From positions 544,001-608,000 of the forward strand of contig OY970061.1 in the NCBI GenBank assembly GCA_963705255.1: a stretch of DNA of 64,000 nucleotides, in the 5' to 3' direction. This DNA comes from an uncultured Methanoregulaceae archaeon (GTDB lineage: Archaea; Halobacteriota; Methanomicrobia; Methanomicrobiales; Methanospirillaceae). The position numbers were made by a program, and so were the translations under genes. Under the pieces are notes generated by a model. The model saw only the letters and a list, made by a program, of their open reading frames with translations. It had not been told where the DNA came from and did not search any database. The stretch's first letter is position 1; every line of letters begins with the position of its first letter. Positions 3,721 to 62,545 of this stretch are shown here, piece by piece.

Positions 3721-4077
3721 GAGGGCGACCCCCTCTCTCAGGTCGCAGAACTCTGACGAGTTCTTCTCCAGTCTGCTCTTCCCTTCGGGAACAGCAGTCT
3801 CCCTAGAGGGGGGAGGCATCCCAAAGGGAGCGCCCCCTTGACCCCCTCCTATTATTCATCCAGTTCTCTGAAAATTTCTCACTAACCTTCTGAGTGATTA
3901 TCGCGCTGTGGGGGATGCCACAGCGGCGGGGAATTAACCGTCGCATCAGCGAGGGTTAATTGGAGAAGAATTCATCAGAATTCTTCGACTGCGAAGGCGA
4001 CAGCATTCGAAGAACCCTCCGGGTTCTTCTCAAGCCTGTTCTTCCCTTCGGGAACAGCAGTCTCCCCCAAGAGCGTC
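3721..4077. repeat. Mosaic palindromic intergenic repeat (copy 1)
   Basis: Backbone shared with 19200-19410 and 28839-29120; REP-like hairpins at 3743-3769, 3962-3988, 4007-4032; two CTTCCCTTCGGGAACAGCAGTCTC units. Confidence 0.85.
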
Positions 4078-4134
4078 TTTTTTTATCTCTTCAAAGCAGG
4101 AAAAACAAAAAAAACCGAAAACTAAAAAACCAAT

Positions 4135-4416
4135 TTATGCGTGATGGCTTTTTGCTCGCTTGCGCAGGGCCTCGGCATAGTGGTGGCGGAGTTCTGCGGT
4201 CTCCTCTGCAGTAAAATCTTTCTTTTTTGTGGCGTGGAGGTGCTTTTCCATCTGTTTTACGATATGCTCGGCCTCGTGGTAATCCTCGACCTCGAGATAC
4301 GCGGGTGCCCTGGCAACCTCATGCGCATGCCCGCAGAGCGGACAGAGTTTCCAGCGCTGGAAACGGTCCACGTAGGAGAACGTCCTGCATCCCGGGCAGC
4401 GGATGATGAGGTACAT
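4135..4416 (-). CDS. Small zinc-ribbon protein (DUF1922-like)
   Basis: MYLIIRCPGC...CPLCG two CxxC pairs; start placed at ATG 4416. Confidence 0.7.
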   Translation of the reverse strand: MYLIIRCPGCRTFSYVDRFQRWKLCPLCGHAHEVARAPAYLEVEDYHEAEHIVKQMEKHLHATKKKDFTAEETAELRHHYAEALRKRAKSHHA

Positions 4417-4560
4417 GGTAATCAGGTGATGGGTGCTATCCTCATAAAAATATATCGGCGGACGGTTAAAACGTTTCACCGGATTTCTCCCGGTTATATG
4501 ACGGATGCCCCAAAAACCCGGAGCATACAAGGCCCTGTCTTCGTGCAGGGTATACCGTGG

Positions 4561-5412
4561 CTACCGGTCACACTGGTGATGCCAGCCCCCGGCGGATTTT
4601 TTCGGCATTTTCGGCAACAGCCGCGCCACAATGGCAGCAAGGATGAAGAAACAGATGGTAACAAGGACAATTGACCCGCCCGGGGCGAGGTTATACATGA
4701 ATGACAGCTGTAACCCGGCAAAGACCGAGAAGACCGCGGTACCGCAGGCAGCGAGTACGGTCCGCTTGAACGGCATCTTCAGTTGTATCATCGCAGATGC
4801 CGGGATTACGATCAGGCTTGACACCAGGAGAACACCCACCAGCCGCATCGCAACGACCACGGTCAGACCGGTCAGTATGGTGAAGACAAGTTCCAGTGCC
4901 GGCACCGGCAGTCCTGAAACTCTGGCGAACTCCGCATCGACCGTGATCCCTACCCATTCCTTCCAGAACAACAATAAAATACCGATGACTATCACCCCGA
5001 GACCTGCCGCAAGGTAGATATCTGTCTGGTTTATACCGAGGATTGTCCCGAAAAGAAAGGAGAGGACGTCGACGGCCACATTCTGCGTGATGCTTACGAG
5101 GATGATCCCGATTGCGAGCCCTGCTGCAAACAGGATCGCGATTGCTGCATCCGAGGCCACCCGTAATTTACCGAGCGCGTGGATACCCAGTGCCCCGAGC
5201 ACCACCCCGGCAACGGCCGTGTATAACGGGTAAATTCCCGTGAATAACCCGAAGGCGATCCCGCCAAAGGCTACATGGCTCAGCCCGTCTGCGATGAGTG
5301 AGAGTCTCCGGAGGACGAGGAACACCCCGAGGCTCGAACAGGTGACTGCGACGATCAGCCCCCCTGTCAGGGCGCGGACTCCGAACTGGTAGGCTAAAAA
5401 TTCAAGGACCAT
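4561..5412 (-). CDS. Zn/Mn ABC transporter permease (ZnuB-like)
   Basis: Hydrophobic; LRRLSLIADGLSHVAFGG motif of ABC-3 permeases. Confidence 0.9.
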   Translation of the reverse strand: MVLEFLAYQFGVRALTGGLIVAVTCSSLGVFLVLRRLSLIADGLSHVAFGGIAFGLFTGIYPLYTAVAGVVLGALGIHALGKLRVASDAAIAILFAAGLAIGIILVSITQNVAVDVLSFLFGTILGINQTDIYLAAGLGVIVIGILLLFWKEWVGITVDAEFARVSGLPVPALELVFTILTGLTVVVAMRLVGVLLVSSLIVIPASAMIQLKMPFKRTVLAACGTAVFSVFAGLQLSFMYNLAPGGSIVLVTICFFILAAIVARLLPKMPKKSAGGWHHQCDR

Positions 5413-5421
5413 GGTCTGATC

Positions 5422-6183
5422 TCAGGTGCTTCTGCCTGCCTCTATCATCAGGTTCCACAGGCCTTCCGCGTTGAGGTTCGCAGCGGGGCCGTCGTAGATC
5501 ACCTTCCGTTGCAGGAATATGACCCGTTCGACATGCGCTGCCAGGTCAGGCAGGTCGTGCAGGATCATCAGGACGGTGATCCGGTGCGCTTTGTTCAGGT
5601 GAGTGACCAGTTTATAGAACTCCTGCTTGCTCTGGGCATCGACACCGTTCGTGGGTTCGTCGAGGGCGATGATATGGGGCCTGCCGACAAGTGCGCGGGC
5701 GATCAGGGTTCTCTGCTGCTGGCCGCCGGAAAGGTCTGAAAACAACTCGTGCTGCACATTTTCAAGACCCGCTTCTGCGATTGCATTGCCGACAGCCCTC
5801 TTACTGTCGGAATTCATGCGCCTGAACAGTCCTACCTGGCCGAACGTTCCCATCTCGACGACTTCCCGGGCAGTAACCGGAAATTGTTCCTGCCTGATGA
5901 CCGGGTTCTGGGGGACATAGCCGATGCAGGGCCTGCAGGGGGTCATGCCCTCGCATTCATCGATATGGCAGGTGAATGCAACGGTTCCCTTGTCGGGCTT
6001 CAGGAGGCCGACCATGATCTTCATGAGGGTGGATTTCCCCGAGCCGTTCGGCCCGGCAATTCCCACGAGCTCTTCCTGCCGGATCGAGAGTGATACATCT
6101 TCGAGGACGGTGTTTGCCCCGTACGCAAACCAGACATTGTCCAGGGTGAGACAGACCTGCTCACCTTCATGGGTCACTGGCAT
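5422..6183 (-). CDS. Zn/Mn ABC transporter ATP-binding protein (ZnuC-like)
   Basis: Walker A GPNGSGKST, LSGGQQQR, Walker B ALDEP. Confidence 0.92.
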   Translation of the reverse strand: MPVTHEGEQVCLTLDNVWFAYGANTVLEDVSLSIRQEELVGIAGPNGSGKSTLMKIMVGLLKPDKGTVAFTCHIDECEGMTPCRPCIGYVPQNPVIRQEQFPVTAREVVEMGTFGQVGLFRRMNSDSKRAVGNAIAEAGLENVQHELFSDLSGGQQQRTLIARALVGRPHIIALDEPTNGVDAQSKQEFYKLVTHLNKAHRITVLMILHDLPDLAAHVERVIFLQRKVIYDGPAANLNAEGLWNLMIEAGRST

Positions 6184-7208
6184 ACCATCGCTTTTTTCAT
6201 TTCCTGCAGGTTGTTCTCCATGATCGCCACGTAATCGGTATCCTCCGGCGTCAGGGGGCCCGAAGGGAGTACCTCCATTGTGGTGAACGCATACAAGGGA
6301 AGATTGAGTTCGGCAGATACGGATTTACTCAGGTCTTCAGCTTCATCCGGTTCCGCGAGGACTCCTCTTGCATTGTGTGCCTTTGCCTCACTGACGATGG
6401 CCGCCATCTGCTGAATGGATGGTTCCGCGTCGGGACTCATCCCGGCAATGGAGATCGGTGTCAGGTTGTACGCCGCCGCAGTATAGTCAAGGAAGGCGTG
6501 CGAGCTCAGGAACGTCCTGGTGGTGCAGTTCGAAAACCCTGCCTTGTAGTCGGAGTCGAGCTGTTTCAGCCGTTTTTCAAATGCTGCAGCATTATTCTGG
6601 TAATCGGTCGCATTTTCCGGGTCTGCTTCTGATAGTTGTTGGGCTACGTAGGGTACATAATACTCTGCCAGCTGCGGCGATAACCAGAGATGCGGGTCCT
6701 GGGTCAGGTTCGGGAAGTCCGCGTACCGGCTCTTCATCTGGTCATAGACAGGTCCCGGGATGGCATCGGCGAAGGTCACGAGTTGTATATCAGGGTTTGT
6801 CGAATCTGCAAGGGTTGCTGCCCAGGGTTCGAGGAACGGACCGTCATAGAAGAAGATCTTCCCGTTTTTCAGAGCTACTGCATCGTCCGGTGTCGGCTCA
6901 TAATCATGGGGATCGGCGCCGGGCGGGAGTATCTGGGTGATGGTGATATGATCCCCGCCAACGGGTGCGACGAGGAGCGTGAACGGGCGGAACGAGGTGA
7001 TTACCGGTAATCCGTTTCCTGAACCGGTAGCCTGGGCTGATCCTGGGACGCCGGTAGTGGATTGACCGCCGGGCGCATTCTTTGCGGGAGTGGCACCCGG
7101 TTGAATAGATCCCTGCGAGCTGCTCGTGCAGCCGGTTGCTGCAGCGAGCACAAGAATGATTACCAGGGCCGCGATCGGCAGAATCGATTTATATTGTCTT
7201 TGTACCAT
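6174..7208 (-). CDS. Zn/Mn ABC transporter substrate-binding lipoprotein (ZnuA-like)
   Basis: PPGADPHDYEP and DPHLWLSP motifs; lipobox-like AAATGC; start moved to ATG 7208. Confidence 0.88.
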   Translation of the reverse strand: MVQRQYKSILPIAALVIILVLAAATGCTSSSQGSIQPGATPAKNAPGGQSTTGVPGSAQATGSGNGLPVITSFRPFTLLVAPVGGDHITITQILPPGADPHDYEPTPDDAVALKNGKIFFYDGPFLEPWAATLADSTNPDIQLVTFADAIPGPVYDQMKSRYADFPNLTQDPHLWLSPQLAEYYVPYVAQQLSEADPENATDYQNNAAAFEKRLKQLDSDYKAGFSNCTTRTFLSSHAFLDYTAAAYNLTPISIAGMSPDAEPSIQQMAAIVSEAKAHNARGVLAEPDEAEDLSKSVSAELNLPLYAFTTMEVLPSGPLTPEDTDYVAIMENNLQEMKKAMVCQ

Positions 7209-7290
7209 CCGGACCACAATCCATCGCTTGACACCCGTCTCTTTTCTGCAAATCTGCTTCGCCGGGTGTCCATATAAAAGTTGTGAGAAT

Positions 7291-7307
7291 TTTGGACAGT
7301 TCCCAAA
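7291..7307. promoter_or_regulatory. Candidate DtxR-family operator TTTGG-N7-CCAAA upstream of the metal ABC operon
   Basis: TTTGGACAGTTCCCAAA; related site TTTGGACTGATTACAAA (minus) at 7897-7913 upstream of the regulator. Confidence 0.45.
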
Positions 7308-7441
7308 TTTTTCTTTCATGTTCTTTCCGGGCCGGCCAAAAACGCATCCGAAGGAATTTTTCAGAATGCCCACCTGCGGCTGCCCGGAGAGAGCGGGTGC
7401 AATCGATACCGCCGGAACAAAGGTTCAGGTTCCCGGCCTTA

Positions 7442-7879: not shown

Positions 7880-8075
7880 GGGTAAACCAAAAAATGTTTG
7901 TAATCAGTCCAAAAATATCCGGGGATCAGATTTGCTTGAATGCCGTGATAATGAATTCACTTCGTGCCCGGGCATCGCGCAGGTCAGGTATCTCCGGTTG
8001 GAGTAAAAAAGGCAGAGGCACGGATGCGCTGAGTGGGAAGAAAAGGCTTTGGAGAAATCATAGGTTTTCATCTTA

Positions 8076-8371
8076 GACGCTCTGAGGGCTACGGCATCTG
8101 ATCCCTCCCCGCTGCTTAGGCATCCCCCATAGAGAGATAGTCCCTTAAAAGGTTAGTGAAAATCCTGCCGAAAATGGGGTCGCAGATTTACTTTGTAAAT
8201 CTTCTCCTCTTCGAGGTCTGAAGACCTCTCAGAGATTCAAGGGGATGCTCCCCCTGCGTTGCCCCCCTTCTGGGGGCAGACTGATGTTCCCGAAGGGAAA
8301 TCGCGGAAGGTTGTCTCTCTTTTACCATTGCGATGAACGCCGCCGCCCCCGACGGGGCGCCCCCGCGGCGG
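8076..8371. repeat. Mosaic palindromic repeat (copy 2, inverted) ending in the left-arm module 8330-8371
   Basis: Reverse complement of the 19200/28839 backbone with nested hairpins 8180-8238, then GCGATGAACGCCGCCGCCCCCG.CGGGGCGCCCCCGCGGCGG. Confidence 0.85.
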
Positions 8372-8472
8372 TTTTTATACGGTTATATTTGAAAAAACGA
8401 ATGGTAAAATTCACTTTCATTCTGCGTAATACAGATTATTAAATACAGGGATTAAGAATAGTCCATTGAGAT

Positions 8473-9096
8473 ATGGATTTGTCGATAAAAGACCGTAAAA
8501 AATTATGGAGCGCGGCTTCCGGAATATGTTCCTATCATCATAATGGCGAAAATTGTGAAAAAAAACTATTTGCAGCGAATGGAATGGTTGATACCAACCT
8601 AGGTGAAGAGTGCCATATTGTCGGTGAAAGACCCGGCGCTGCAAGATATCTAGAAAATTTTGCTGAAAAAGAGACTTCCGACAATGCAATTGTCCTATGC
8701 AAAATACATCATAAAATTGTTGATGATAATCCCGATGAATATACGGTGGACGTCCTTAAAAGAATGAAAGAGGAGCATGAACGCACAATCTCCGAAAGAT
8801 TAGCAAATCGAGAAATTGTACCATTTATATTAAATGATTGTCAGATCTTGCTTAAAGTTGATAAAGCGGAAGAAGATGTAATAGGATTAGATGTTCAGAG
8901 ACCCGCAATACTTTCGAATGTTGGTGTAAGGGTCCAAGTAGGTGAAGCCAAGACCGCAATTGGAATGAAGGTTTCAGGAGGACTTACTGTAACAATGGGT
9001 TATTGTGAAAATTGTAAAAGATATTTTAGTAAATCCTTTTCAGGTCAACAAGATACGCAAATTAAAGAATGCCCTTCCTGTCATCGACCTGTATAA
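8473..9096 (+). CDS. HNH endonuclease-domain protein with C-terminal zinc ribbon (foreign, AT-rich)
   Basis: LW..ASGICS...C...GEECHIVG..PG..R...NAIVLCKIHHKIVD...Y.VD.L..MK..HE pattern; CxxC..CxxC at C-terminus; much more AT-rich than flanks. Confidence 0.8.
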   Translation: MDLSIKDRKKLWSAASGICSYHHNGENCEKKLFAANGMVDTNLGEECHIVGERPGAARYLENFAEKETSDNAIVLCKIHHKIVDDNPDEYTVDVLKRMKEEHERTISERLANREIVPFILNDCQILLKVDKAEEDVIGLDVQRPAILSNVGVRVQVGEAKTAIGMKVSGGLTVTMGYCENCKRYFSKSFSGQQDTQIKECPSCHRPV

Positions 9097-9104
9097 AACC
9101 TTCC

Positions 9105-9148
9105 TGCCCCGCCGTGCCTCGGAGAGGCCCTGAGGCGGGGGCCTCCCC
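9105..9148. repeat. Right-arm module of the repeat family
   Basis: TGCCCCGCCGTGCC...GGCCCTGAGGCGGG matches 25185-25227 and inverted copies 52779-52822, 39206-39248. Confidence 0.85.
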
Positions 9149-9301
9149 TATCAGAATTTTCATAATTTTTTGTGGAATTATCCATCTTTTTCGTTTCAAC
9201 CGAACATGGTGAAGAAACTGGATCGTCCCAGCCGGTACAAGTGGACCTCCACGCTCAATCCGAAACCGCTATATCGGGCGATCATTCATAGAGATGTGAC
9301 T

Positions 9302-19085: not shown

Positions 19086-19199
19086 TTTTTTGCGTGCAGT
19101 AATTCCCGGCTTTTTTCCGTTAGAAAATTTCCGTTTTATTTTTCTCTCTGCAGAAAACCTGTCAGTGTCCATTTTTTGTAAACCACTTGAAAAGGCTAT

Positions 19200-19410
19200 G
19201 AGGGTGACCCCCTCTCTCCCCCAGAGGGGGAGGCAGCCCAAGGGGCGCATCCCCTTGACCCCCATCTATTATTCCTCCCGTTTCTGAGAATTTCTCGCTA
19301 ACCTTCTGAGTGACTATCCTATCATGGGGGATGCCCAAGCGGCGGGGGCGGAGGCAACGATTGCCGTAGCCCCCAAGAGCGTGAGAGGCCCTGAGGCGGG
19401 GGAACCTCAC
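19200..19410. repeat. Mosaic palindromic repeat (copy 3, backbone without nested inserts)
   Basis: GAGGGTGACCCCCTCTCTCCCCCAGAGGGGGAGGCA...CCCCTTGACCCC...CTAACCTTCTGAG...CCCCAAGAGCG plus partial right arm. Confidence 0.85.
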
Positions 19411-19548
19411 AGATATTGATTATTCTTACGATTTTCAGGGTTCCGGTGTGAACATAATTGGTTCATGACTGTTTCAAGAACCAATTTTTTTTATTGTGCA
19501 CAGTTACCGGGCTTCCCCAACGGGGCTGAAACTTTCGGGTTGTGAAAA

Positions 19549-25010: not shown

Positions 25011-25078
25011 TCCTTCTTCAGGTCAGGAGATTTCAATTATTCTGCTGCAATCCCGAAAAAACATTTGGATATGGTTTA

Positions 25079-25229
25079 TGGGGGTTGAGACCCCCATTCC
25101 CCCTTCGCGATGAACGCCGCCGCCCCCGGCGGGGCGCCCCCGCGGCGGGTTGATTGCCTGTTTTCTAAAATATGATCGGTAATTTGCCCCGCCGTGCCCC
25201 GTAAGGGGCCCTGAGGCGGGAGTCCTCAC
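25079..25229. repeat. Left arm - 36 bp spacer - right arm repeat (copy 5)
   Basis: Left arm 25107-25148 and right arm 25185-25227 match 8330-8371/9105-9148 and the inverted copy at 52779-52920. Confidence 0.88.
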
Positions 25230-25325
25230 ATAGTTTCAGATTTAAGATAGTAGTCGCTACCGTTTCGGATAATTCAAAAATAGACGGGTGGAACTTATCC
25301 CCCCCGGAAAAATTATGAAGTCGTA

Positions 25326-28738: not shown

Positions 28739-28838
28739 TCGCCCCTTTTTAAAAATGCCGATTGAATAATTTGCATAAATTCCGGTTTTGTTGAAACCTT
28801 TTTCTGATCATTTGCTTATACTATTCTGCTGCGGTTAG

Positions 28839-29120
28839 GAGTGTGACCCCCTCTCTCAAATCGAAGAACACTCCGGGTTCGATCGAAGACCTGCGGTCTT
28901 CTCCTGTCTCAAGTCTGATGACTTTCGACATTCTCCAGCCTACTCTTCCCTTCGGGAACAGCAGTCTCCCCAGAGGGGGAGGCAACGCAAGGGGAGCGTC
29001 CCCTTGACCCCCCTTTTTTCGGCAGGATTTTCACTAACCTTCTGAGGGACTATCTCTATATGGGGGCTGCCCAAGCGGCGGGGGCGGAAGCATGAAGTGC
29101 TGGAGCCCCCAAGAGCGACT
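28839..29120. repeat. Mosaic palindromic repeat (copy 6)
   Basis: Same backbone as 19200-19410 with a ~111-bp hairpin insert 28858-28968; 44 bp (28897-28940) identical to 62401-62444. Confidence 0.88.
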
Positions 29121-29343
29121 TCTAGTTTCCTTGAGGATTTCAGCATTTTTGCCTGAACTCCATTTCCGGTTATTCTGTATCGCGATCGTTCCGCGGTTAA
29201 GTCAGATTACCTACCATGTTATTTCGCTTTTTGATTCTCGTAATCTCTGCTTACGCTGCCGAAAAACACAGTTCGGTTTTGTATATGCCATATCGAAACC
29301 TATTTTTTGTCTTTTGAGAAACATATACGATGGAGTGAATGAG

Positions 29344-29517
29344 TTGGTAGCGGTCGTTGACAACGATAAGTGTACCGGATGTGAAACCTGCGTGAGCGAA
29401 TGTCCCGCATCGGCAATCGCCCTCGATAATGACAAGGCAAAAGTTGACAAGGAGATGTGCGTTGACTGCCAGACCTGTGTCGATATCTGCCCCTCTGAAG
29501 CCATAACCGTGGAGTGA
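29344..29517 (+). CDS. 2x[4Fe-4S] ferredoxin (copy 1)
   Basis: CTGCETCVSECP and CVDCQTCVDICP; TTG start after SD-like GGAGTGA (GTG 29335 is an alternative). Confidence 0.9.
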   Translation: MVAVVDNDKCTGCETCVSECPASAIALDNDKAKVDKEMCVDCQTCVDICPSEAITVE

Positions 29518-29522
29518 ATGAA

Positions 29523-29696
29523 TTGGTAGCTGTTGTTGACACCGATAAGTGTACCGGATGCGAGACCTGCGTGAGCGAATGTCCCGCATCGGCAATCGCC
29601 ATGGAGAATGACAAGGCGAAAGTGGACAAGGACATGTGCGTCGACTGCCAGACCTGTGTCGACGCCTGTCCGTCAGAAGCAATCCATATGGAATAA
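29523..29696 (+). CDS. 2x[4Fe-4S] ferredoxin (copy 2, tandem duplicate)
   Basis: Near-identical to copy 1 at a 179-bp period. Confidence 0.9.
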   Translation: MVAVVDTDKCTGCETCVSECPASAIAMENDKAKVDKDMCVDCQTCVDACPSEAIHME

Positions 29697-39123: not shown

Positions 39124-39205
39124 GAAATTTCATTTTTTTATTTTGTTCCGTGTACGTGAACGTACAGGGGTAGTCAAAGAATAAAAAATGAAAACGATGA
39201 ATTAC

Positions 39206-39465
39206 GAGTGCTCCCCGCCTCAGGGCCCTCAACGGGCACGGCGGGGCAGGGAGGTTTTTCAGTCACAAATCTGTAATGAGGAGCCGGTCGTCGCACCAGT
39301 GAGGGACGATTAATTCCCCGCCGTTCGGGCATCCCCTCATGGCGATATTCTCTCATAAGGTATACGGGACACCATCGGAAAATTCCCTAGCGGGTAATAC
39401 CGAGGAATCGCTCAGCGCAGGGGTGGGTCAAGGGAGGGGACAGGCACTGTCCCCTCCCTGATTGC
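39206..39465. repeat. Mosaic palindromic repeat (copy 7)
   Basis: Inverted right arm 39206-39248; TTAATTCCCCGCCG..GGCATCCCC shared with 3910-3937; GGTAATACCGAGG shared with 41649-41661. Confidence 0.75.
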
Positions 39466-41286: not shown

Positions 41287-41555
41287 TTCCTGTCCAGACC
41301 TTGAAACTTTCACATTCCCCTGTACCTGCTCTGAACCTTCCCCTCCCTCAACCGGTGCGGGCCTCCTCCTTTTCATACCCGCCGTCTCATGGCCAGCCTT
41401 ATATCGGAAAGAATACATCGGAAGTGCCAGGGAACCCCTTTCTCTCCGGAGGCGTCACCGGAGGAGATGCAAAGTTCACGTACAGGTACAACAATAGTTT
41501 CCCGATCGCCAGGAAATGATTTTATGGGCTCTGTAGAAATCATTGAGAGTAGCTT

Positions 41556-41716
41556 GACGCTCCAGGGGCTTCGCCCCGCCGCTGGGGCGCCCCAGTTGCG
41601 ATAGTGCCGTATTACCTGTTTATAAAAAATGCAAAGAAATTTTGAACAGGTAATACCGAGGCATCACGTGCGCCCCCGCCCCCAACGGGGGCAGGGATGG
41701 CGCAAGGGGGGCGATC
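41556..41716. repeat. Mosaic palindromic repeat (copy 8)
   Basis: Same outer modules as 21301-21520; inner 12-bp inverted repeat GTATTACCTGTT/AACAGGTAATAC. Confidence 0.8.
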
Positions 41717-41876
41717 CTATCTCACGAAATAGGTTTTCTACAGAGGAATTTTATGCATTCTTGAAATTGTTCCGCTGGATAAAATGCGATCAGATGGGGT
41801 GCTTAACCTTTATCTATTTTCGAATCGTGTTTATTAAGATAAGATAGGGGTGGTCAGTACATCTTTATCTCAAAGA

Positions 41877-45828: not shown

Positions 45829-46637
45829 GACCAGCCCTCCCCGAGCGCGATAAAGAGGGATGCGATCAGGATGTCGGCGATGGAACCCGGATTGATATCC
45901 CGTGAAATGCACTCGCCGTCGAGATCCTCTGCCGAACGTTTCCCGTCGAGCACATCGCGCGCACTGTTCATGATCTCCTGCGCCACTCCGGCGCCGTGCT
46001 TCTTGATGATGAAGGTGTCAGGTTCTGTTGCGAGGAGCGTGAGGAACGTCCGGACAATTGCCTGCCTGCCTGGGCCGGTCTCCCTGAGGATGTCCGCACC
46101 CCGCCGGGACAGGCGAAATCCGGTCACCCACTCGCGGGCCACCATATCGCTTGCCGCAGAGTGCTGCATGATGTCAAGGAGTGTCATCCCGCGGTCACGT
46201 ATCAGGGTCAGCGTATGCGGGTCATTGACATCAAGTTCATCCGCTGCGTTCATCCTCACCGATGTCATGGCAAAGGCCTTGTAGAATGCTACGGCATCCG
46301 AGGTATCGGTCTTTTCTATGGCTTTCTGCGCACCGGGAATGTCTTTTCCGTAAATAAGCGGGATGAGAAGGATAAATGCCCCAAAGTGGGTATTTCCCCC
46401 CAGATGGCAGTTGGTATCACGGACTGCATGTTTGATGATCTCCCCGATCCTCCCGGTACCCGGTTCGGCTTCTTCAAAGGCAGAGCGGGCAAAGATGGTG
46501 GATGCCAGGAAATGTTCGAGCCGGGTATCAGGATAGTCGTGGCAACGGTCAACGTTTCCCGGCTTCGGGTAGGCGCAGACCTCAAGCATCATTGCAAGTT
46601 GCGCCCGTTCAGCGGCTGGTATCTGCAGGCACGTCAT
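45816..46637 (-). CDS. Triphosphoribosyl-dephospho-CoA synthase (CitG)-like protein
   Basis: LEVCAYPKPGNVDR, NTHFG, DTFI..KHG, NPGSIAD. Confidence 0.85.
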   Translation of the reverse strand: MTCLQIPAAERAQLAMMLEVCAYPKPGNVDRCHDYPDTRLEHFLASTIFARSAFEEAEPGTGRIGEIIKHAVRDTNCHLGGNTHFGAFILLIPLIYGKDIPGAQKAIEKTDTSDAVAFYKAFAMTSVRMNAADELDVNDPHTLTLIRDRGMTLLDIMQHSAASDMVAREWVTGFRLSRRGADILRETGPGRQAIVRTFLTLLATEPDTFIIKKHGAGVAQEIMNSARDVLDGKRSAEDLDGECISRDINPGSIADILIASLFIALGEGWSWDY

Positions 46638-47748
46638 GGAAAACACGGCTCATTATCGTATCTGAAAGCTCGCGTTTGAGGCGCATATACTCTTTCTTTG
46701 TAAGTCCCGCCTGCCTGAGGGTCATATCCCGGAACATGCACGGCGATGACGTCTTGCAGCACCAGGAAAGGCTGCCAAAACAGGTCTGCTTGCCGTCTTC
46801 GAGAGGGGTCCCCTTTACGGCACCGGTCTTCATCGCTATATAGTCTTCCTTGGGCACGCCGATGCGAGAAAGTGTCGGGATCAGCGGGCACTCTTTCACC
46901 GGCATGCAACAGAACGTGAGGGAACGGATATCTCCCCCGCGACAGAGCTGCTTTGGCGCATTGTACCATCCTTCTTCGTCCGCGTACCGGGTAATAGCAG
47001 CATCGAGCCCGGCAAGAGTCCGCATGTCCGCATGCCGCGCGAGAGAAACGATATCAGCGCCATGGGAGAGCATGTCTTTCATGCGATCGAAGGTGTTGAT
47101 GGAATTGTTGGCGATCAGCATCAGGGGGCAGCTGTTCCTGATCTGCCGGAGCTTTGCCGTGCCGAAGTCCATGAGGTCCACGTGAAGAATATCTGCTCCC
47201 GCCTCCCAGAGTTTCCCGGCCAACAGCCGGTCGTCGTCTGAAACACCGGCCCTGATCTTCACCGATACCGTAACACCGGTCCCTTTGAGAGCACGGACAA
47301 CGGCAAGGAGCTTTTCCACGTTCCTGAGATAATATTCCCCGGACCCGGCGTCAACCATGGCCGGCTGGCGGCAGTGGGCATCGATCTCGTAGACGACCGT
47401 ATCCCCGAGCACCCTCACCAGGTCGCAAAATGAGTCGGGGGTACTCCCACGAAGGTTGATCCCGGTGATCACGCCGGATCCTTCCAGTTTCCGGATCTGG
47501 TTCGTAAGTTCGGTTACCGGATCATCATAGAGGAATTCTTTATGGTCGCCTGCAGAAGCGATGGTCTCTGCGGCATTCATGGTCTGTTCATCAATGGAAT
47601 ATCCGCCGATAAAAGCGAGGCCGATGTGGCTTGCACGTTCGAGCACGTATGCTGCATCGACGATTCCTGCCATCGATGCAACCGCCACGGGAGTCCTGAC
47701 AACCCGGTCATTGATGAGCAGCCCGAAGCGCTCAAACGCATCCATCAT
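46609..47748 (-). CDS. TIM-barrel (DUS-like) protein fused to methanogenesis marker 9 domain
   Basis: ASMAG, DAHCRQ, ANNS; C-terminal W.NAP...CRGGD.R.L.FCC.P.K.CP...TCFGSL.WCCK; start ATG 47748. Confidence 0.85.
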   Translation of the reverse strand: MMDAFERFGLLINDRVVRTPVAVASMAGIVDAAYVLERASHIGLAFIGGYSIDEQTMNAAETIASAGDHKEFLYDDPVTELTNQIRKLEGSGVITGINLRGSTPDSFCDLVRVLGDTVVYEIDAHCRQPAMVDAGSGEYYLRNVEKLLAVVRALKGTGVTVSVKIRAGVSDDDRLLAGKLWEAGADILHVDLMDFGTAKLRQIRNSCPLMLIANNSINTFDRMKDMLSHGADIVSLARHADMRTLAGLDAAITRYADEEGWYNAPKQLCRGGDIRSLTFCCMPVKECPLIPTLSRIGVPKEDYIAMKTGAVKGTPLEDGKQTCFGSLSWCCKTSSPCMFRDMTLRQAGLTKKEYMRLKRELSDTIMSRVFHDVPADTSR

Positions 47749-47816
47749 AAGTTCATATCTATTGAAGGTGATGGGACAAATTACTTTGGGTATGATCCGG
47801 CACATGCACGCGATTC

Positions 47817-48030
47817 AATCCCGTCGCGAACGAAAGTGAGCACGGGATTGCATTGAGGAGGGGCATATGCCGGATCAGGAGAAGACCGTGAGCGAAGCGC
47901 ACGGTCTTCGACATGCAAGTACCTATTAATCCCCGTTCGCGAACGAAAGTGAGCACGGGATTGCATTGAGGAGGGGCATATGCCGGATCAGGAGAAGACC
48001 GTGAGCGAAGCGCACGGTCTTCGACATGCA
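47817..48030. repeat. Tandem duplication (113-bp period) of a two-hairpin unit of the repeat family
   Basis: 47825-47917 identical to 47938-48030; each unit has an AATCCCG...CGGGATT hairpin and GGAGAAGACCGTGAGC-GAA-GCGCACGGTCTTCGA. Confidence 0.92.
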
Positions 48031-48087: not shown

Positions 48088-48540
48088 TCAGAGTTTCTCG
48101 ACACAATATCCATCCCTGGTCCGGCCCAGGACGACCCCCTCCCGCGCATCCTCAACGGTTATCCCTCTGTTGTTCCTGAAGTGTTCTATAACGGTCGCCC
48201 AAGGTATCAGGAACGCCTCATTAGCTTTTCCCGGCCCATGCCGGAATTCGATCGCAAGGTACCCTGTCCGCCCGGTCTTCGAGAGGAAATCCGATATTGT
48301 GTCCACCTGGTGGACATTATTCTTATCGGCATGAAAATGCTGGGAAAAGTAGAGCTTCTTATCCATAATGGATTTACATTCAATAGAAAGGTAATAGGAA
48401 GGATTGAGGGAGTCCACCAGCACGTCCACGTACTGGCTGGTGAACTTATGCTGCTTGAGCCGGTAGGCAAATCCCTGAATATGGTGTGTTTTGAAATACC
48501 GGTTCAGGCAGTGGACGATCTCCCGTTCGAAATCACTCAT
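48088..48540 (-). CDS. Holliday junction resolvase-like PD-(D/E)xK nuclease
   Basis: FERE...VDVLVDS...IECKS..LYF. Confidence 0.75.
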   Translation of the reverse strand: MSDFEREIVHCLNRYFKTHHIQGFAYRLKQHKFTSQYVDVLVDSLNPSYYLSIECKSIMDKKLYFSQHFHADKNNVHQVDTISDFLSKTGRTGYLAIEFRHGPGKANEAFLIPWATVIEHFRNNRGITVEDAREGVVLGRTRDGYCVEKL

Positions 48541-52695: not shown

Positions 52696-52778
52696 TTTTT
52701 TTTTCAACACTCTGTTCCTTTTTTTAATTTTTTTTCCAAGACAATCCCATCGAATCAGAAAAAAACCTGAGAAGATAC

Positions 52779-52922
52779 GAGTCCTCCCCGCCTCAGGGCC
52801 CCTCGCGGGGCACGGCGGGGCAAGGAGTTTCCCGAGATTTTAGTTCCTGATCCGCCGCGGGGGCGCCCCGCCGGGGGCGGCGGCGTCTATCATAATGGGG
52901 GTATGGGGGTCTCAACCCCCAT
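52779..52922. repeat. Left arm - 29 bp spacer - right arm repeat (copy 9, inverted)
   Basis: Reverse complement of 25079-25229 with a different spacer (52823-52851). Confidence 0.88.
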
Positions 52923-53060
52923 CATCGGATTTCATCCTCATGATCTTTACGATCTGCTTCTCCGATATTTTCTCTTCGAAATCCGAAAAGCAATTTCCTC
53001 CCTGCACCACTCCCGGACAAAAGAAAAAACTACAAAACCCCCTACACCCCATCAACAGCT

Positions 53061-56923: not shown

Positions 56924-57004
56924 GCAACCACTCTCTCGAATATAATTACGTCACCCGGATACAATAAGTGTTTGTGAAAGTCCGGGCCATGGCTTGAGTC
57001 CGCT

Positions 57005-59051: not shown

Positions 59052-59300
59052 GATCAACGGGAGATCTTTTGTTCATATAACTGTATTGGCTTTTCGCTTT
59101 GGTGTGAAAAATCATGGAATGTTTTTGCGGAACCGTTCATTGTCCCCCGGGAAACCGTTTTTATTGCGGTCGCACAAACCGGAGGGCCTGCTGATGGTGA
59201 AACGCCGGAAGAAAGAGAAGAATGCGACAAGAATTTTTTTGGGTTTTTACTCATTTTATGACAAAATTTAACCCGGAAATCCAAACAAGGCGCGGTGGTA

Positions 59301-59316
59301 CGAAATTATTATAAAC
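59301..59316 (+). promoter_or_regulatory. Candidate BRE/TATA box for the Nramp operon
   Basis: CGAAATTATTATAAAC ~130 bp upstream of the Nramp ATG. Confidence 0.5.
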
Positions 59317-59446
59317 GTCCGATGTCTATCCCTATGCAGGACGTCATCATTGGTGACTTTCTTCAACTGCCATTCAGATCGAGTGGATCGAATGGGGGGA
59401 TGACCGGCACAATGAACTGAAAAAACACTATAAGAAAGGGCATACC

Positions 59447-60715
59447 ATGGATTTTTTATCGAAGTTTTATTTTAATTACAGCAAGCTCATCAAGACCATC
59501 AAGATCTACCTGCTGCTTGCCGGACCAGGCCTCATTGTCATGATCGCCGACAACGATGCCGGTGGGATCACCACGTACGCCGCAACCGGCGCAAAGTACG
59601 GGTACGGCCTCATCTGGTTCCTCGTCCTGCTCGGGCCGGTTGCATATTTTGTACAGGAAATGACGGTACGGCTGGGGGCCGTCACCAAGCATGGGCACGC
59701 AGAGGCGATCTTCAGCGCGTTCGGCTCGTTCTGGGGATGGTTCTCGCTCCTTGACCTCACCGTTGTCAACTGGCTCACGATGGTCACCGAGTTCATCGGC
59801 ATGACTGCGGCGCTCAGCATCTTCGGTGTTCCACCCGCCATCACGGTAGGCATAGTCATCCTCGTGATGTTTGGCATCGTTTTGTCTGGGAGGTACTGGA
59901 CGTGGGAGAAGATCACCATGGCCTTCTGTCTTGTCAATCTCATCTACATACCGGCGGCGATACTCGTCCACCCTTCGGTCCCCGATATCCTCCGGAACGG
60001 GATCGTCCCCAACTTCCCGGGAGGGTTCAATGGCGAACTCTTCTTCCTGCTGATGGCAAACATCGGGACTACGATCGCGCCCTGGATGATCTTCTTCCAG
60101 CAGAGCGCGGTCGTTGACAAGCAGATGAAGGAGAAGGACATTCCGTGGGGGAAATTCGACACGGTTGTCGGTGCAATCTTTACCGTTCTCGTCGCGGTAT
60201 TCATTATCATCGTGACCGGGACCCTGCTCTACGGTATGAACATCGAGAGTGCCGCCCAGGCCGCCCAGGTCATGATGGGAATGCACCCGTGGGTGGGGAC
60301 GCTCATCGCCATCGGTCTCTTCGATGCCGGGTTTCTGGGAGCAATCTGCATTGCGCTCACCAACTCGTGGGCATTCGGGGAAGTCTTCGGATGGGCGCAC
60401 TCGCTGAACTACAAAGTCAGAGAGGCGCTCTGGTTCTACGTCTTCTACTTCATCGGCCTTGTCACCGCAGGGGCGGTCGTGCTCATTCCGGGAGCACCGC
60501 TGGTGCTGATCACGCTCTTCGTTCAGGTGATCGCAGTGACCCTCCTGCCGGCTGCGCTGGTATTTTTGATCATCCTCCTGAACAACGAGGAGATCATGGG
60601 GAAATACAAAAATACCCGCTTCGACAATATAGCGAACATAACAATCGTCGTGTGCATCATCGTCGTGTCTTCACTGTACGGTATCAGCACGCTGTTCCCG
60701 AATTTGTTCGGGTAA
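59447..60715 (+). CDS. Nramp-related divalent metal (probably Mg2+) transporter
   Basis: GPGL...ADNDAGGITTY (NRMT-type rather than DPGN), QEM..RLG.VT, GTTIAPW..FFQQS. Confidence 0.88.
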   Translation: MDFLSKFYFNYSKLIKTIKIYLLLAGPGLIVMIADNDAGGITTYAATGAKYGYGLIWFLVLLGPVAYFVQEMTVRLGAVTKHGHAEAIFSAFGSFWGWFSLLDLTVVNWLTMVTEFIGMTAALSIFGVPPAITVGIVILVMFGIVLSGRYWTWEKITMAFCLVNLIYIPAAILVHPSVPDILRNGIVPNFPGGFNGELFFLLMANIGTTIAPWMIFFQQSAVVDKQMKEKDIPWGKFDTVVGAIFTVLVAVFIIIVTGTLLYGMNIESAAQAAQVMMGMHPWVGTLIAIGLFDAGFLGAICIALTNSWAFGEVFGWAHSLNYKVREALWFYVFYFIGLVTAGAVVLIPGAPLVLITLFVQVIAVTLLPAALVFLIILLNNEEIMGKYKNTRFDNIANITIVVCIIVVSSLYGISTLFPNLFG

Positions 60716-60730
60716 GGAGGGATTTAGAGA

Positions 60731-60946
60731 ATGGAATCAATCGAAAGAGTATTCGGGGAACGGATCGGAAGTATCATCAGTGAATCGACGGGGAAGATCC
60801 GCAGCATTAACCAGAAATATGCAACGCCGAAGATCAAACTGACGGGAGGGGCAAAATTTGCGCTCCTCTTCCTCAGGTTCTACCTTATCTTCCTGGTTGT
60901 CCTGCTCGCGTACAAGTTCTGGACGATCGTTCACGGGAGTGCATGA
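60731..60946 (+). CDS. Small single-TM membrane protein
   Basis: SD GGAGG; IN.KYA.P.I......LL.LR.YL pattern; coupled to next gene. Confidence 0.75.
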   Translation: MESIERVFGERIGSIISESTGKIRSINQKYATPKIKLTGGAKFALLFLRFYLIFLVVLLAYKFWTIVHGSA

Positions 60947-62232
60947 TGGCGCAGCAGGATAGCGCGAACAGCTCCGCGATGGCAGGAGACCTCGTGATCC
61001 TCCTCTCCGATATCCTGAATGTCCCTGTCCTGCGTTCCGGGAAAAAAATCGGTTTGCTCACCGATCTGGTGATCGCAGAGACCGCGAAGATCCCTGAAGT
61101 GCGGTCCCTGTACGTCTCCCGGTCGTTCGGCAACCCGAGCCTTCTCATCCCGTGGGAGAATGTCCACACCCTCACCGGGAGAGGGATCGAGGTCATCATC
61201 AGCGACCTCAAGCCCTATGAGGCGGAACCAGCCGAGGATGTCATCCTCCTCCGCGACTACGTACTCGACAAGAAGGTCATCGATCTCGAGGAGAACGAGG
61301 TGGAGGTGGTGTACGACATCCGGCTCGTCCTCCGGAACAAGAAACTCTATGTCACCGATGTCGATACCGGGAAGGCAGCCCGTCTCCGCAGGCTCGGGTT
61401 CGGGTTCCTCGCGAAAGTTCTCTATTCCTCTGTTGATCCCGAGGCAGAGCAGATGATCCCCTGGACATGCATCCAGCCGCTCCCGACCAACATCGGCCGG
61501 TTCAAGGGCAACGTCAAGCTGAATGTCCTAAAAGAGAATCTTTCGGAGATCCATCCCGTCGATCTCGCAGACATCCTCGAAGAGGTGGACCACGACCAGC
61601 GGGTCATGCTCTTCTCAACCCTCGATCACGAGCACGCGAGCGATACTCTCGAGGAGATCGAGCCGAAGGTGCAGCGCGAGATCATCTCCTCGCTGTCAAC
61701 GGAGAAGGTCGTCCAGCTCATCAACGATATGACCCCCGGTCAGGCGGCTGACATCCTCTCCGGCCTGCCGTCGGCGGAGGCCCATGTCATCCTTGACGCC
61801 ATGAACGCTGAGAGCGCACGGAAGGTCCAGGCTATCATCAACCGGCAGGAAGAGAAGGTCATCCACTATACCACCCAGAAGATCCTGAAATTCCCTCCGG
61901 ACACGACCGTCGAGTATGTCCAGAATGACTACCCTCGCCATGCCCGGGACAAAGATGTTATCATGTACATCTACGTTGTCGACGAGAACGATCGCCTGAT
62001 CGGCGTCATCGATTTAAAGGAGCTCCTGCAGGCCGATGACAAGGCATTCCTCCGGGACGTCATGGTCGAGAACGTGATCAGCCTCCCGACCGGGAGCACT
62101 CTCAAGGAAGGTGCACAGGAATTTGCGCGGTACGGGTTCCGTGCCCTGCCGGTTGTCGACGAGGAGAACCGTCTCGTTGGTGTAATCCCGTACCGGGACG
62201 TCATGAACCTGACCCATCACTTTGTCGAGTGA
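60943..62232 (+). CDS. Soluble MgtE-like regulatory protein (PRC-barrel-like + MgtE N-domain + CBS pair, no TM)
   Basis: HPVDLADILEE MgtE_N motif, YIYVVD...L.GVI.LKELL and ALPVVD CBS motifs. Confidence 0.85.
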   Translation: MMAQQDSANSSAMAGDLVILLSDILNVPVLRSGKKIGLLTDLVIAETAKIPEVRSLYVSRSFGNPSLLIPWENVHTLTGRGIEVIISDLKPYEAEPAEDVILLRDYVLDKKVIDLEENEVEVVYDIRLVLRNKKLYVTDVDTGKAARLRRLGFGFLAKVLYSSVDPEAEQMIPWTCIQPLPTNIGRFKGNVKLNVLKENLSEIHPVDLADILEEVDHDQRVMLFSTLDHEHASDTLEEIEPKVQREIISSLSTEKVVQLINDMTPGQAADILSGLPSAEAHVILDAMNAESARKVQAIINRQEEKVIHYTTQKILKFPPDTTVEYVQNDYPRHARDKDVIMYIYVVDENDRLIGVIDLKELLQADDKAFLRDVMVENVISLPTGSTLKEGAQEFARYGFRALPVVDEENRLVGVIPYRDVMNLTHHFVE

Positions 62233-62545
62233 GAGGTCATCAGACCTCGAAGTGGAGAAGATTTCCGAAGGAAATCTTCGACCAGCGAGAGGTCATCACA
62301 AGTCGAAGGTCGGCTGACGCCTCCCTTCTCCTCGTCGAGGTCTGACGACCTCTCCGAACTCGAAGAACGCTGATGCGTTCCATCGAAGAACCCTTCGGTT
62401 TCTTCTCCTGTCTCAAGTCTGATGACTTTCGACATTCTCCAGCCAGCCCTGCCCTTCGGGAACGGCATACTACGGCAAGTCGAAGAATGCTAATGCATTC
62501 TTCTCCATCCAGCCCTGCCCTGCGGGCACGGCAGGCTCCCCAAAG
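62231..62545. repeat. Dense array of REP-like hairpin modules
   Basis: GGAGAAG-stem-CTTCGA units at 62253-62281, 62303-62331, 62383-62408, 62480-62506; AGGTC-TGAY-GACCT units; two GCCC-TNC-GGG hairpins. Confidence 0.88.

Follow-up and report, generated by a model that had tools for sequence, protein, structure and literature searches.

How does a methanogen come to carry a large family of short palindromic repeats, and what keeps their stems paired? REP-type repeats and RAYT enzymes are usually regarded as bacterial. An earlier note on a 64-kb stretch of archaeal DNA, from a host reported as Methanoregula (genome under study, G000), described small extragenic palindromes that form a dispersed family, with feet that stay fixed, covarying stems and mosaic arrangements, and our genome-wide counts and alignments agree with that description. 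The family is real, and we judge it to be a mobile or recombining repeat at the DNA level. We favour, with a probability of roughly 60%, the reading that the repeats are small non-coding palindromic DNA acting as mobile or recombining DNA, and not a conserved RNA gene.

The whole stretch of 64,000 nucleotides, hereafter the window, was searched with the pattern GGAGAAG-N(8-30)-CTTCGA and compared with 100 shuffles. Eight exact matches were found versus 0.10 expected, a count reached by none of the shuffles, with starts at 3962+, 28883-, 47878+, 47991+, 62254+, 62303-, 62383- and 62480-; three further copies with one flank mismatch (3743-, 4007- and 8180-) were each found by the covariance model R1. 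The claim of at least 11 copies with at most one flank mismatch thus holds for all 11, and the stems and loops listed for them agree as written; the copy placed at 62253+ is genuine, with its start corrected to 62254+. The features of the window are as follows.

3714..4078, no strand: mosaic repeat block of 365 nt, self-BLAST coverage up to 44, with three main-motif copies and other hairpin modules; it aligns module by module with four other loci, the indels being whole modules.
3743..3769, minus strand: main-motif hairpin with AACTC/GAGTT as stem and, on the GGAG strand, GTCA as loop; the 3' foot CTGCGA has one mismatch, and the R1 hit spans 3740-3772(-) at 41.2 bits.
3962..3988, plus strand: main-motif hairpin GGAGAAGAATTC-ATCA-GAATTCTTCGA, an exact match (R1 53 bits), preceded by the partner hairpin CCGTCGC-ATCA-GCGAGG.
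4007..4032, minus strand: main-motif hairpin, stem AACCC/GGGTT; the 5' foot TGAGAAG has one mismatch (R1 33.4 bits).
8045..8373, no strand: mosaic block that opens, at 8045-8059, with an inverted end of the MITE type, GGCTTTGGAGAAATC, scored by nhmmer at 16.2 bits; about 195 nt of it matches six other loci at 84-88%.
8180-8207 with 8211-8230, minus strand: doublet of a main motif, ending CTGCGA (R1 18.8 bits), and a partner hairpin.
19146..19475, no strand: MITE-like scaffold copy without doublets, which in comparison with filled copies shows the empty sites CTCTCTC^CCCCAGAGGGGG and CCCCTTGA^CCCCC.
28780..29145, no strand: mosaic block of 366 nt, a MITE-like scaffold with degenerate ends that carries the 28883- doublet.
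28883..28904, minus strand: short main-motif hairpin GGAGAAGACC-GCA-GGTCTTCGA, an exact match, forming with the partner hairpin 28909-28926(-) a recurrent 50-nt doublet.
41527..41745, no strand: MITE-like element of 219 nt from the same inverted-end family, without doublets, flanked by the 8-bp duplication ATTTTATG.
47820..48030, plus strand: tandem duplication of a 113-nt unit (TRF period 113, 1.9 copies, 98% matches) between an Hjc-like gene and the next gene, with a long-stem main-motif hairpin in each unit (47878-47911 and 47991-48024).
62230..62542, no strand: mosaic of 313 nt in which the main motif forms four hairpins, 62254+, 62303-, 62383- and 62480-, accompanied by partner hairpins at 62231-62250+, 62335-62354- and 62413-62430-.

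Genome-wide, 158 exact copies of GGAGAAG-N5-24-CTTCGA were found, 18-37 nt long, versus 2 matches to the same pattern read backward as a control. The density, about one copy per 16 kb across the genome and five loci in the 64-kb window, is lower than the one locus per 6 kb proposed before. By our own crude gene calls, which assign 72% of the genome to coding sequence, 144 of the 158 copies are intergenic and 10 of the 14 others form no hairpin, so that the statement that all copies are intergenic stands inside the window and fails genome-wide. For 47 of the 158, the surrounding repeat block is no longer than 90 nt or there is no block at all.

The unit of the family is a hairpin between unpaired purines, 5'-(G)GA-[stem-loop-stem]-GA(C)-3', in which the foot and the first four stem pairs, GAAG/CTTC, are fixed and the upper stem and loop are free. 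Judging from their sequence, the two GA pairs can make a tandem G.A/A.G mismatch closed by G-C. Usually two hairpins on the same strand, 5-6 nt apart and each bracketed by 5'-GA...GA-3' on that strand, form a doublet of about 50-60 nt with the GGAGAAG...CTTCGA hairpin second. In 91 of the 144 intergenic copies the 34 nt upstream contain a partner hairpin with 5 or more perfectly paired bp, versus 269 of 2000 random intergenic 34-mers, and the gap is 5-6 nt in 58 of the 91, with linkers such as GAAGA and GAGACA. GA...GA flanks occur on 343 intergenic hairpins (157 + 186), by far the commonest flank pair (the next has 53); in coding DNA this pair falls outside the top 12. The unit is not the single REP alternating in orientation that had been pictured, but a doublet whose two hairpins point the same way; copies in opposite orientation are also present within mosaics. 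Doublets stand alone in unique DNA, nested, in tandem arrays with periods of 52-59 nt, or inside MITE-like elements, and identical module boundaries recur between paralogous copies.

The stems were examined in an alignment of 82 R1 model hits (73 distinct) from 464 kb picked for copy density. Paired cells make up 98.6%, versus 84.3% in shuffles; 100 cells are changed on both sides, versus 25.8 +/- 5.5 (0 of 500 shuffles reach 100); and the covariation score is 0.373, versus 0.113 shuffled and 0.04-0.07 with slid partners, all of these numbers being biased towards structure because the alignment was fitted to the R1 model and its rows are paralogues. The claim that the flanks are fixed while the stems vary yet pair is borne out by this strong covariation. 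Loops differ by strand, those of the GA strand being ATCA (84), GAA (43), TTCA (21), GCA (17) and GTCA (17), and 307 of 485 hairpins have a C-G closing pair. The purine-foot strand is more stable than its complement in 142 of 144 copies with DNA parameters and in 93 of 144 with RNA parameters, by a small gap of about 0.7 kcal/mol. With such repeats one can ask whether perfect "compensatory" stems come from palindrome correction at the DNA level or from selection on RNA.

Tandem G.A pairs are a common protein-binding motif in RNA, and the G.A-bracketed stem would fit a role at that level. If the repeats were functional RNA, hairpins in 3'-UTRs or between cistrons would stabilise or terminate transcripts or bind a protein, and selection on RNA structure would keep the covariation. 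The copies are about twice as common in spacers between convergent genes as between divergent ones (127 versus 60), the foot and doublet layout is kept across genera, the covariation is strong, and many bacterial REPs have been argued to be RNA elements in the account given by Di Nocera et al. (PMC3733652). However, orientation relative to transcription is unbiased: in same-direction spacers the sense strand is not preferred (76 copies in the same direction, 80 opposite). Copies are nested, tandemly arrayed and polymorphic between genomes of about 95% identity, and ten other species, the repeat-rich G002 and G055 among them, have no copy in their neighbourhoods syntenic with window loci A and B. 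Rfam 15 at gathering score gave two tRNAs in the window and no match to the hairpins, and on direct inspection the hairpin sequences do not have the three-base bulge that defines a kink-turn. We consider a role as functional RNA quite unlikely.

The same hairpins had been proposed to be processed by HUH TnpA(REP)/RAYT enzymes, in which case a domesticated Y1 HUH transposase would cut and move them as single-stranded DNA. Their layout of a short unpaired tag and a hairpin, the insertion beside a short conserved word without target duplication, and the DNA-parameter preference for one strand all fit such a process. Yet a search for the Y1/HUH domain PF01797 gave no match in the genome under study, with a positive control in 6 of 14 reference genomes, and likewise none in the 14 Methanoregula genomes that are rich in the repeats. 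Within the genus it is held by 5 of 81 genomes (G001, G006, G016, G023, G054), each with at most two strict-pattern copies. In Quentin et al. 2018 (PMC6006769), Archaea yielded only the IS200 subclass of Y1 proteins. Replication-strand bias was not seen either: the copies show no visible bias along the chromosome or to one replication strand of this genome, whose origin position is unmapped. With no RAYT gene in any repeat-rich genome, the term "REP-like" is supported and "RAYT-processed" is not. RAYT processing is accordingly very improbable and, with the known Y1 proteins, largely refuted, PF01797 being missing wherever the repeats are abundant.

The likeness to bacterial REPs and BIMEs lies in the size and number of extragenic palindromes (20-40 nt in tens to hundreds of copies there, 18-37 nt in 158 copies here), in the short unpaired foot tag, in mosaics with other motifs, in the preference for spacers downstream of genes and in the restriction of families to lineages. 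The differences are an archaeal host, a tag that reads G-GA...GA (GGAG / CGA) and not GTAG or CGTC as in the families treated by Di Nocera et al. 2013 (PMC3733652), a same-orientation doublet as the unit where REPs and REPINs form an inverted pair, much greater diversity of stems within one genome, and no RAYT. The same account describes a CGTC-tagged super-family as REPs without a dedicated transposase. A methanogen lineage thus keeps hundreds of structure-defined palindromic repeats without a RAYT-type enzyme. In the genome under study there were also no hits to the ISL3, IS110, IS256 and IS1595 transposase families, and the remnants found were two truncated TnpB-like frames (250 and 259 aa, TNB domain only) with a further weak match, a pair of short DDE_Tnp_1 fragments and a single rve match below threshold.

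ISL3 elements make 8-bp target duplications and have ends starting GGCTCT. A MITE-like family with ends GGCTCTGGAGAAATC gave 83 + 82 matches with at most 3 mismatches, versus 28 + 24 in the control; its scaffolds have 15-nt inverted ends starting GGCTCT and 8-bp target duplications. There are 24 paired elements, of 133-578 nt, whose contents are hairpin modules, and 13 of them show an 8-bp duplication with at most one mismatch at zero offset, more doing so with ends shifted by 1-2 nt (examples are CGATAATC, AATTTCCA, CAGACAAC and AAAAAAAC). The hairpins might then be immobile on their own, being carried inside ISL3-like MITEs that a DDE transposase moves, and their module differences would come from gene conversion, slippage and deletion. 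Whole-stem swaps at orthologous sites, which resemble conversion, also fit this explanation. Against it, paired ends enclose only 26 of the 158 copies, an end hit within 700 nt is found for 49 of them, otherwise unique sequence contains solo doublets whose stems are unique, and the scaffold copies at 19146-19475 and 41527-41745 have no doublets. Inverted ends and target duplication hold for the scaffold elements only, not for the hairpin doublets. The ISL3 transposase domain PF01610 is missing from the genome under study and present in 9 of 81 genus genomes; no MITE end (at most 3 mismatches) was found within full-length ISL3 loci, and the ISL3 element of G051, whose ends read GGCTCTTCTCCCAATTTAGGAT, starts GGCTCTT and has only the 6 nt GGCTCT in common with the MITE end. 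We regard the hairpins as unlikely to be MITE sequence alone. Concerning a match to the termini of a catalogued IS or MITE, which the earlier note had named as a refutation, some copies are internal MITE-like cargo, but the hairpins are not termini and many lie outside.

The preferred reading of mobile or recombining DNA draws on a comparison with a relative, G041, over about 525 kb aligned at about 95% identity. From 26 indels of at least 15 nt plus 18 indels of at least 25 nt, seven base-exact hairpin-block events of 31-124 nt were obtained, none with a target duplication, each being either an insertion or a precise deletion in this comparison of two genomes. Three of the seven are at GGAGAA^G of an existing copy; the other sites are GAG^T, GTT^T, a hairpin loop and the side of a G+C-rich palindrome. 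One event is a 55-nt doublet in unique DNA, with flanks identical at 30/30 positions on both sides and no inverted ends, which also speaks against MITE cargo; another is a 37-nt single unit with 97%-identical donors elsewhere in the genome. Five of the seven fall within repeat mosaics and could be products of gene conversion, with another mosaic copy as the source and no transposition, as the MITE explanation would have it. Paralogous copies differ in having or lacking the 28883- type of 50-nt doublet at GGAGAA^G, as does one comparison with G041, and G041 has an additional 102-nt four-hairpin block exactly at GGAGAA^G of the 62254 copy. Orthologous hairpins in G041 show whole-stem swaps although their flanks are 90-95% identical; the orthologue of the 3962+ copy, for example, has the stem AATCC/GGATT. 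G041, G053 and G019 share the 47820..48030 insert; in G059 it is degenerate, and the remaining holders examined do not have it. The repeats were recently and cleanly gained or lost at sites known to the base; in Methanoregula genomes they indicate where assemblies break and where rearrangements occur, and they can be used directly as strain-typing markers.

How the units move can be sketched conditionally. The purine strand would fold when the DNA is single-stranded, at a replication fork or in an extruded cruciform, and a trans-acting activity, or a replisome switching templates at the conserved feet, would cut or copy the unit at the hairpin foot and join it beside another foot or a short purine-rich site without target duplication. 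Quasi-palindrome correction is known from the literature; intrastrand template switching in quasi-palindromes could transfer changes from arm to arm. The stems would then stay perfectly paired because only fold and foot are recognised and because changes are copied between arms. Doublets accumulate within one another and within the separate MITE-like family, and this gives the mosaics of the window. A bolder and quite doubtful suggestion is that the doublets are a new kind of mobile DNA in Archaea, seemingly autonomous yet protein-less, recognised only by the G.A-bracketed foot and copied or cut and pasted at hairpin feet by a host structure-specific activity (replisome template switching or a junction or hairpin nuclease) without a dedicated transposase. 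One candidate host factor is the Hjc-type resolvase that adjoins the long-stem copies of the window: 12 of the 14 repeat-rich Methanoregula genomes have kept it, as have G148 and G025, which also bear the repeats, whereas most relatives free of repeats gave no match to it.

Among archaeal repeats, the family comes closest to the PATE and SMR elements of Haloquadratum, which are free of transposase. In the sections of Dyall-Smith et al. 2011 (PMC3119063) on these elements of Haloquadratum walsbyi, PATEs have no inverted ends, PATEs and SMR-A no target duplication, and PATEs two near-terminal palindromes and a size of about 50 nt in the 52-bp "terminal-only" form; insertions vary between strains without an intact IS200-type transposase, and palindromes of other elements receive small repeats. 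This account supplies archaeal precedents both for transposase-free palindromic elements and for insertion into palindromes. Our doublets, as seen in the seven indels and in their anatomy, likewise lack inverted ends and duplications and have palindromes near both ends. As to a fixed 4-6-nt target word of the PATE type, three of the seven events share GGAGAA^; the others follow GAG or GTT, fall in a loop or adjoin a palindrome rich in G+C, so that the sites are not uniform. PATE palindromes resemble IS605-type transposon ends from the same or related genomes in that description, whereas in six genomes a family hairpin was found within 1.5 kb of 1 of 17 TnpB-like loci (R1, filters off), and the methanogen TnpB-like frames reach a length of no more than about 250 aa. 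The methanogen family differs from PATEs as described there in its GA-bracketed foot and its free stems. Bacterial CGTC REPs and haloarchaeal PATE/SMR pose the same question of how transposase-free palindromic repeats spread, for which the methanogen family offers a tractable case.

Other systems share single features. The scaffolds resemble ISL3-type MITEs in their 15-nt GGCTCT inverted ends, 8-bp duplications and length, in contrast to the hairpin doublets, which have neither ends nor duplications, and to a genome without the cognate transposase. In integron attC sites, too, the feet are fixed while the stems are free, but they are imperfect hairpins of at least 55 nt with conserved R''/R' feet in arrays beside an IntI integrase, whereas the methanogen units are 18-37 nt and dispersed, outside cassette arrays.

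The family is not confined to this assembly, a restriction that the earlier note would have taken as a refutation. Several copies are present in each of 14 of the 81 Methanoregula genomes and also in a second genus (G148). In G148, as in G025, which belongs to another taxonomic family and has two copies, the foot and the doublet layout are unchanged while the stems differ.

The main motif, a GGAGAAG-[stem]-loop-[stem]-CTTCGA hairpin, was searched for in the window as GGAGAAG-N(8-30)-CTTCGA. The pattern matched eight times, compared with a mean of 0.10 in dinucleotide-preserving shuffles, none of which (0/100) reached eight. Three further copies, each with one flank base off, were all recovered by a covariance model, so that the eleven copies listed in the earlier note are genuine, and the sequences of their stems and loops agree as written there. 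The source genome, G000, is a single 2.60-Mb contig with 54.6% G+C (window at 544,001-608,000), and GGAGAAG-N5-24-CTTCGA occurs in it 158 times, the reversed pattern used as a control only twice. According to a rough gene prediction of our own (2,216 genes, 72% of the genome), 144 of these 158 exact copies are intergenic and 14 lie in coding sequence, ten of which are non-hairpins; the statement that all copies are intergenic holds for the window and has to be relaxed to a large majority genome-wide.

The fixed "flanks" turned out to be mostly stem base, since GAAG pairs with CTTC, and the unpaired remainder is 5'-G-GA on one side and GA-C-3' on the other. From these unpaired GA pairs a tandem G.A/A.G mismatch could arise, with a G-C pair to close it. 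A kink-turn reading was ruled out because the 3-nt bulge is absent. A census of every perfect hairpin in G000 (minimum stem 5 bp, loop 3-6 nt) identified GA...GA (TC...TC on the opposite strand) as by far the commonest intergenic flank pair, accounting for 157 + 186 of 4,754 hairpins (runner-up 53), and in coding DNA the same pair is outside the top 12. Bracketing of hairpins by GA...GA is a general rule across G000. Loop sequences of the GA strand include ATCA (84), GAA (43), TTCA (21), GCA (17), and GTCA (17), their complements being scarce (TTC 6), and 307 of 485 hairpins have C-G as the closing pair. Folding with DNA parameters makes the purine strand the more stable of the two strands in 142 of 144 copies; RNA parameters do so in 93 of 144. 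On average, the strands differ by about 0.7 kcal/mol.

Most main-motif copies are one half of a doublet. A second perfect hairpin, the partner hairpin, is present within 34 nt upstream of 91 of the 144 intergenic copies; among 2000 random intergenic 34-mers, 269 contain one. In 58 of these 91 cases the two hairpins are 5-6 nt apart, joined by linkers like GAAGA or GAGACA.

To describe stem variation, a covariance model built from 14 distinct 27-nt copies was run on 464 kb of sequence picked for copy density, yielding 82 full-length matches at E < 7e-6 and 73 distinct rows. That the stems vary yet keep pairing, as had been claimed, is borne out: 98.6% of cells are paired (84.3% in shuffles) and 100 cells are altered on both sides (25.8 +/- 5.5 in shuffles, reached by 0/500), although the model itself shaped the alignment, whose rows are paralogues, so that these numbers show that pairing is kept and not its cause. 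The covariation score was 0.373, compared with 0.113 for shuffled alignments and 0.04-0.07 with slid partners, and each of the three upper-stem pairs occurs as three to five standard pair types.

The distribution among 81 Methanoregula genomes was surveyed with the strict pattern GGAGAAGA-N3-22-TCTTCGA, which finds 119 copies in G000 (controls 0-1). Thirteen other genomes contain 86, 64, 62, 50, 49, 37, 27, 25, 24, 23, 19, 18, and 15 copies, forming with G000 the repeat-rich set, and the remaining 67 contain 0-7. Among 151 genomes sampled across the phylum, the covariance model found many copies only in G000 and in G148, a closed genome from another genus of the same family with at least 27 copies (up to 47 candidates were scored per genome). 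Two copies were found in G025, from another family, and single weak matches in three further genomes. In G148 and G025 the copies have other stems, with foot, loops, and doublet layout preserved. The genes near the two G025 copies (cobalamin, tRNA-synthetase, and Mrr-type nuclease genes) are uninformative.

Gain and loss were studied against the nearest relative compared, G041, three contigs of which align with G000 at about 95% identity over about 525 kb. Among the indels examined (one set of 26, each 15 nt or longer, and another of 18, each 25 nt or longer), seven are base-exact hairpin-block indels of 31-124 nt without target duplication, any one of which may have arisen by insertion or by precise loss. 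Three of them lie exactly at GGAGAA^G of an existing copy.

Hairpin-block indels between G000 and G041
Genome position 48,493: 50 nt, at GGAGAA^G
Window position 62,259: 102 nt, in G041, at GGAGAA^G
Position 2,588,776: 124 nt, at GGAGAA^G, with a 3-nt GAA ambiguity
53-nt doublet in the loop of another module; identical insert in the identical place at a different G041 locus
31-nt single hairpin adjoining a G+C-rich palindrome
37-nt single unit after an existing partner hairpin; 97%-identical donors elsewhere in the genome
55-nt doublet in unique DNA between convergent genes; 30/30 flanking bases identical on both sides

Five of the seven are inside mosaics, blocks of several hairpin modules, where gene conversion could give the same result. 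Module boundaries recur among paralogous copies. Larger differences were also seen: a 734-nt composite with inverted ends stands in place of CTGA, and in G041 a block of 550 nt in place of 25 nt. At one repeat locus of the window, locus A, the stems are AATTC/GAATT in G000 and AATCC/GGATT in the G041 orthologue, between flanks that are 90-95% identical. Ten further species, of which two are repeat-rich, have no copy in the neighbourhoods syntenic with locus A and a second window locus, locus B. No replication-strand bias was visible in 200-kb bins, and the flat GC skew gives no position for the origin.

On the best reading, the repeats form a lineage-restricted family of hairpin doublets, defined by their structure, whose feet would be the sites at which they move or recombine as DNA. 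The recurring module boundaries, nested and tandem copies, swapped stems at locus A, and empty neighbourhoods at loci A and B point to movement as well. The REP/BIME-like description in the earlier note was right in kind. Di Nocera et al. (PMC3733652) describe REPs as 20-40-bp palindromes with an unpaired GTAG or CGTC tag, mostly downstream of genes, the CGTC type being without a dedicated transposase. In the archaeon Haloquadratum, Dyall-Smith et al. (PMC3119063) describe PATEs with near-terminal palindromes, including a 52-bp form, and without inverted ends or target duplication, SMR-A repeats that insert into palindromes, and insertions that are strain-specific though the IS200-type transposases are broken. 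No earlier description of the hairpin family was found in the open-access literature searched.

BLAST against G000 showed that the window loci belong to larger dispersed repeats, each module of which has 10-45 copies. Five loci that align over 400-450 nt share one module order, whole modules being present or absent, and some blocks are bounded by the 15-nt inverted end GGCTCTGGAGAAATC. Allowing up to three mismatches, this end has 83 + 82 matches in G000, compared with 28 + 24 for a control word. We found 24 paired-end elements of 133-578 nt, 13 of which have an 8-bp duplication (at most one mismatch) at zero offset; more show one once a 1-2-nt shift of the ends is allowed, which inflates chance matches. 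Perfect duplications are CGATAATC, AATTTCCA, CAGACAAC, and AAAAAAAC. These elements are MITE-like.

Repeat features (window coordinates unless noted)
41527-41745: MITE-like element of 219 nt without a doublet; ends GGCTCTGTAGAAATC / CCTCTGTAGAAAACC, 8-bp duplication ATTTTATG
19146-19475: scaffold copy without doublets
25078-25230, 39188-39361, 52773-52924, 8330-8373: second dispersed repeat family, G+C-rich palindromes; 22-34 BLAST partners
L071 (a sequence stretch of G000) 5000-5560, genome about 360.0-360.5 kb: tandem array of about eight copies of a 59-nt unit on a degenerate main-motif hairpin

Doublets build up within the MITE-like scaffolds. Only 26 of the 158 hairpin copies are inside paired ends, and 47 lie outside any repeat block or in one no longer than 90 nt, many of these being doublets with both stems unique in G000. 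Nesting was seen, with a reverse-orientation copy within the loop of another copy, and tandem arrays have periods of 52-59 nt. A CRISPR-like reading of the arrays was ruled out because the entire 59-nt unit repeats. Like arrays with periods of 52-56 nt are present at 2,461 kb in G000 and in two other genomes, G019 and G050.

The G+C-rich palindromes, with the sequences CCGCCGCGGGGGCGCCCCGCCGGGGGCGGCGG and CCCCGCCTCAGGGCC...GGCACGGCGGGGCA, frequently adjoin hairpin mosaics. A 1,224-nt segment (window 8034-9257), in whose place 160 nt stands in G041, contains a mosaic (8045-8373) and a 207-aa ORF (8473-9096) without a Pfam family. A clean empty site for the element at 8045 was sought in another genome, G048, and not found, synteny being broken there.

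The proposal that RAYT enzymes process the repeats is not supported, as the Y1/HUH family (PF01797) has no match in G000 or in any repeat-rich genome among the 81 genus genomes searched. Quentin et al. (PMC6006769) report the Y1 proteins of Archaea as IS200 subclass only. No IS110, ISL3, IS256, or IS1595 transposase was found in G000, and the ISL3 element of a relative, G051, has only GGCTCT in common with the MITE end. Other traces in G000 are two short DDE_Tnp_1 fragments, one sub-threshold rve match, and, for TnpB-like proteins, two frames of about 250 aa and one weak match. No multi-copy transposase was found among G000 ORFs at 70% identity or more; all Pfam-named multi-copy ORFs are housekeeping paralogues, and two small families are without a Pfam match. 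Four genes in G000 have hairpins on both sides, and the two that were scanned (167 and 175 aa) gave no Pfam family and no HUH motif by eye. An origin of the hairpins from TnpB ends was rejected, a family hairpin being nearby at only one of 17 TnpB-like loci in six genomes.

Six repeat-rich genomes encode one or two frames each, of about 245-342 aa, with only the Cas12f1-like TNB domain of TnpB (stretches L055, L056, L179-L185). Similar in size across species, these frames may represent conserved genes and not transposases in decay.

A further candidate partner adjoins the long-stem copies of the window.

48088-48540, minus strand: Hjc-type Holliday-junction-resolvase-like gene, 150 aa

The gene is the sole PF01870 match in G000 (24.4 bits, cut-off 21.1), and its product conserves the E...D...ExK residues. 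It is present in 12 of the 14 repeat-rich and 9 of the 67 repeat-poor genomes of the genus, in total only 21-23 of 81, with broken remnants in G014, G076, and G001. In line with a prior prediction, G148 and G025 carry the gene, and none was found in the hairpin-free genomes G108, G170, and G200. Hairpins adjoin the gene in only four of 20 loci, the repeat-rich holders group with two repeat-poor ones in one clade of moderate support (81/75) on a tree of this gene from 30 genomes, and the family occurs in 67 of the 151 sampled phylum genomes, nearly all of them hairpin-free. The link to the hairpins is therefore unspecific and confounded by descent. The protein is an ordinary resolvase, and its patchy retention may or may not be significant; it keeps a place only as a candidate host factor in a more novel and less likely reading, in which the doublets would spread with no dedicated transposase.

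The neighbouring 398-aa gene (window 46609-47805, minus strand) has only a weak Dus-like Pfam match. In about two dozen relatives, its orthologues read through one in-frame TGA, absent in G000, which could reflect selenocysteine, recoding, or error. Elsewhere in the window (29331-29662), a 179-nt unit is repeated 1.9 times at 91% identity, starting within a 4Fe-4S ferredoxin-like ORF (29092-29517) and running past its end; it is probably an internal domain duplication.
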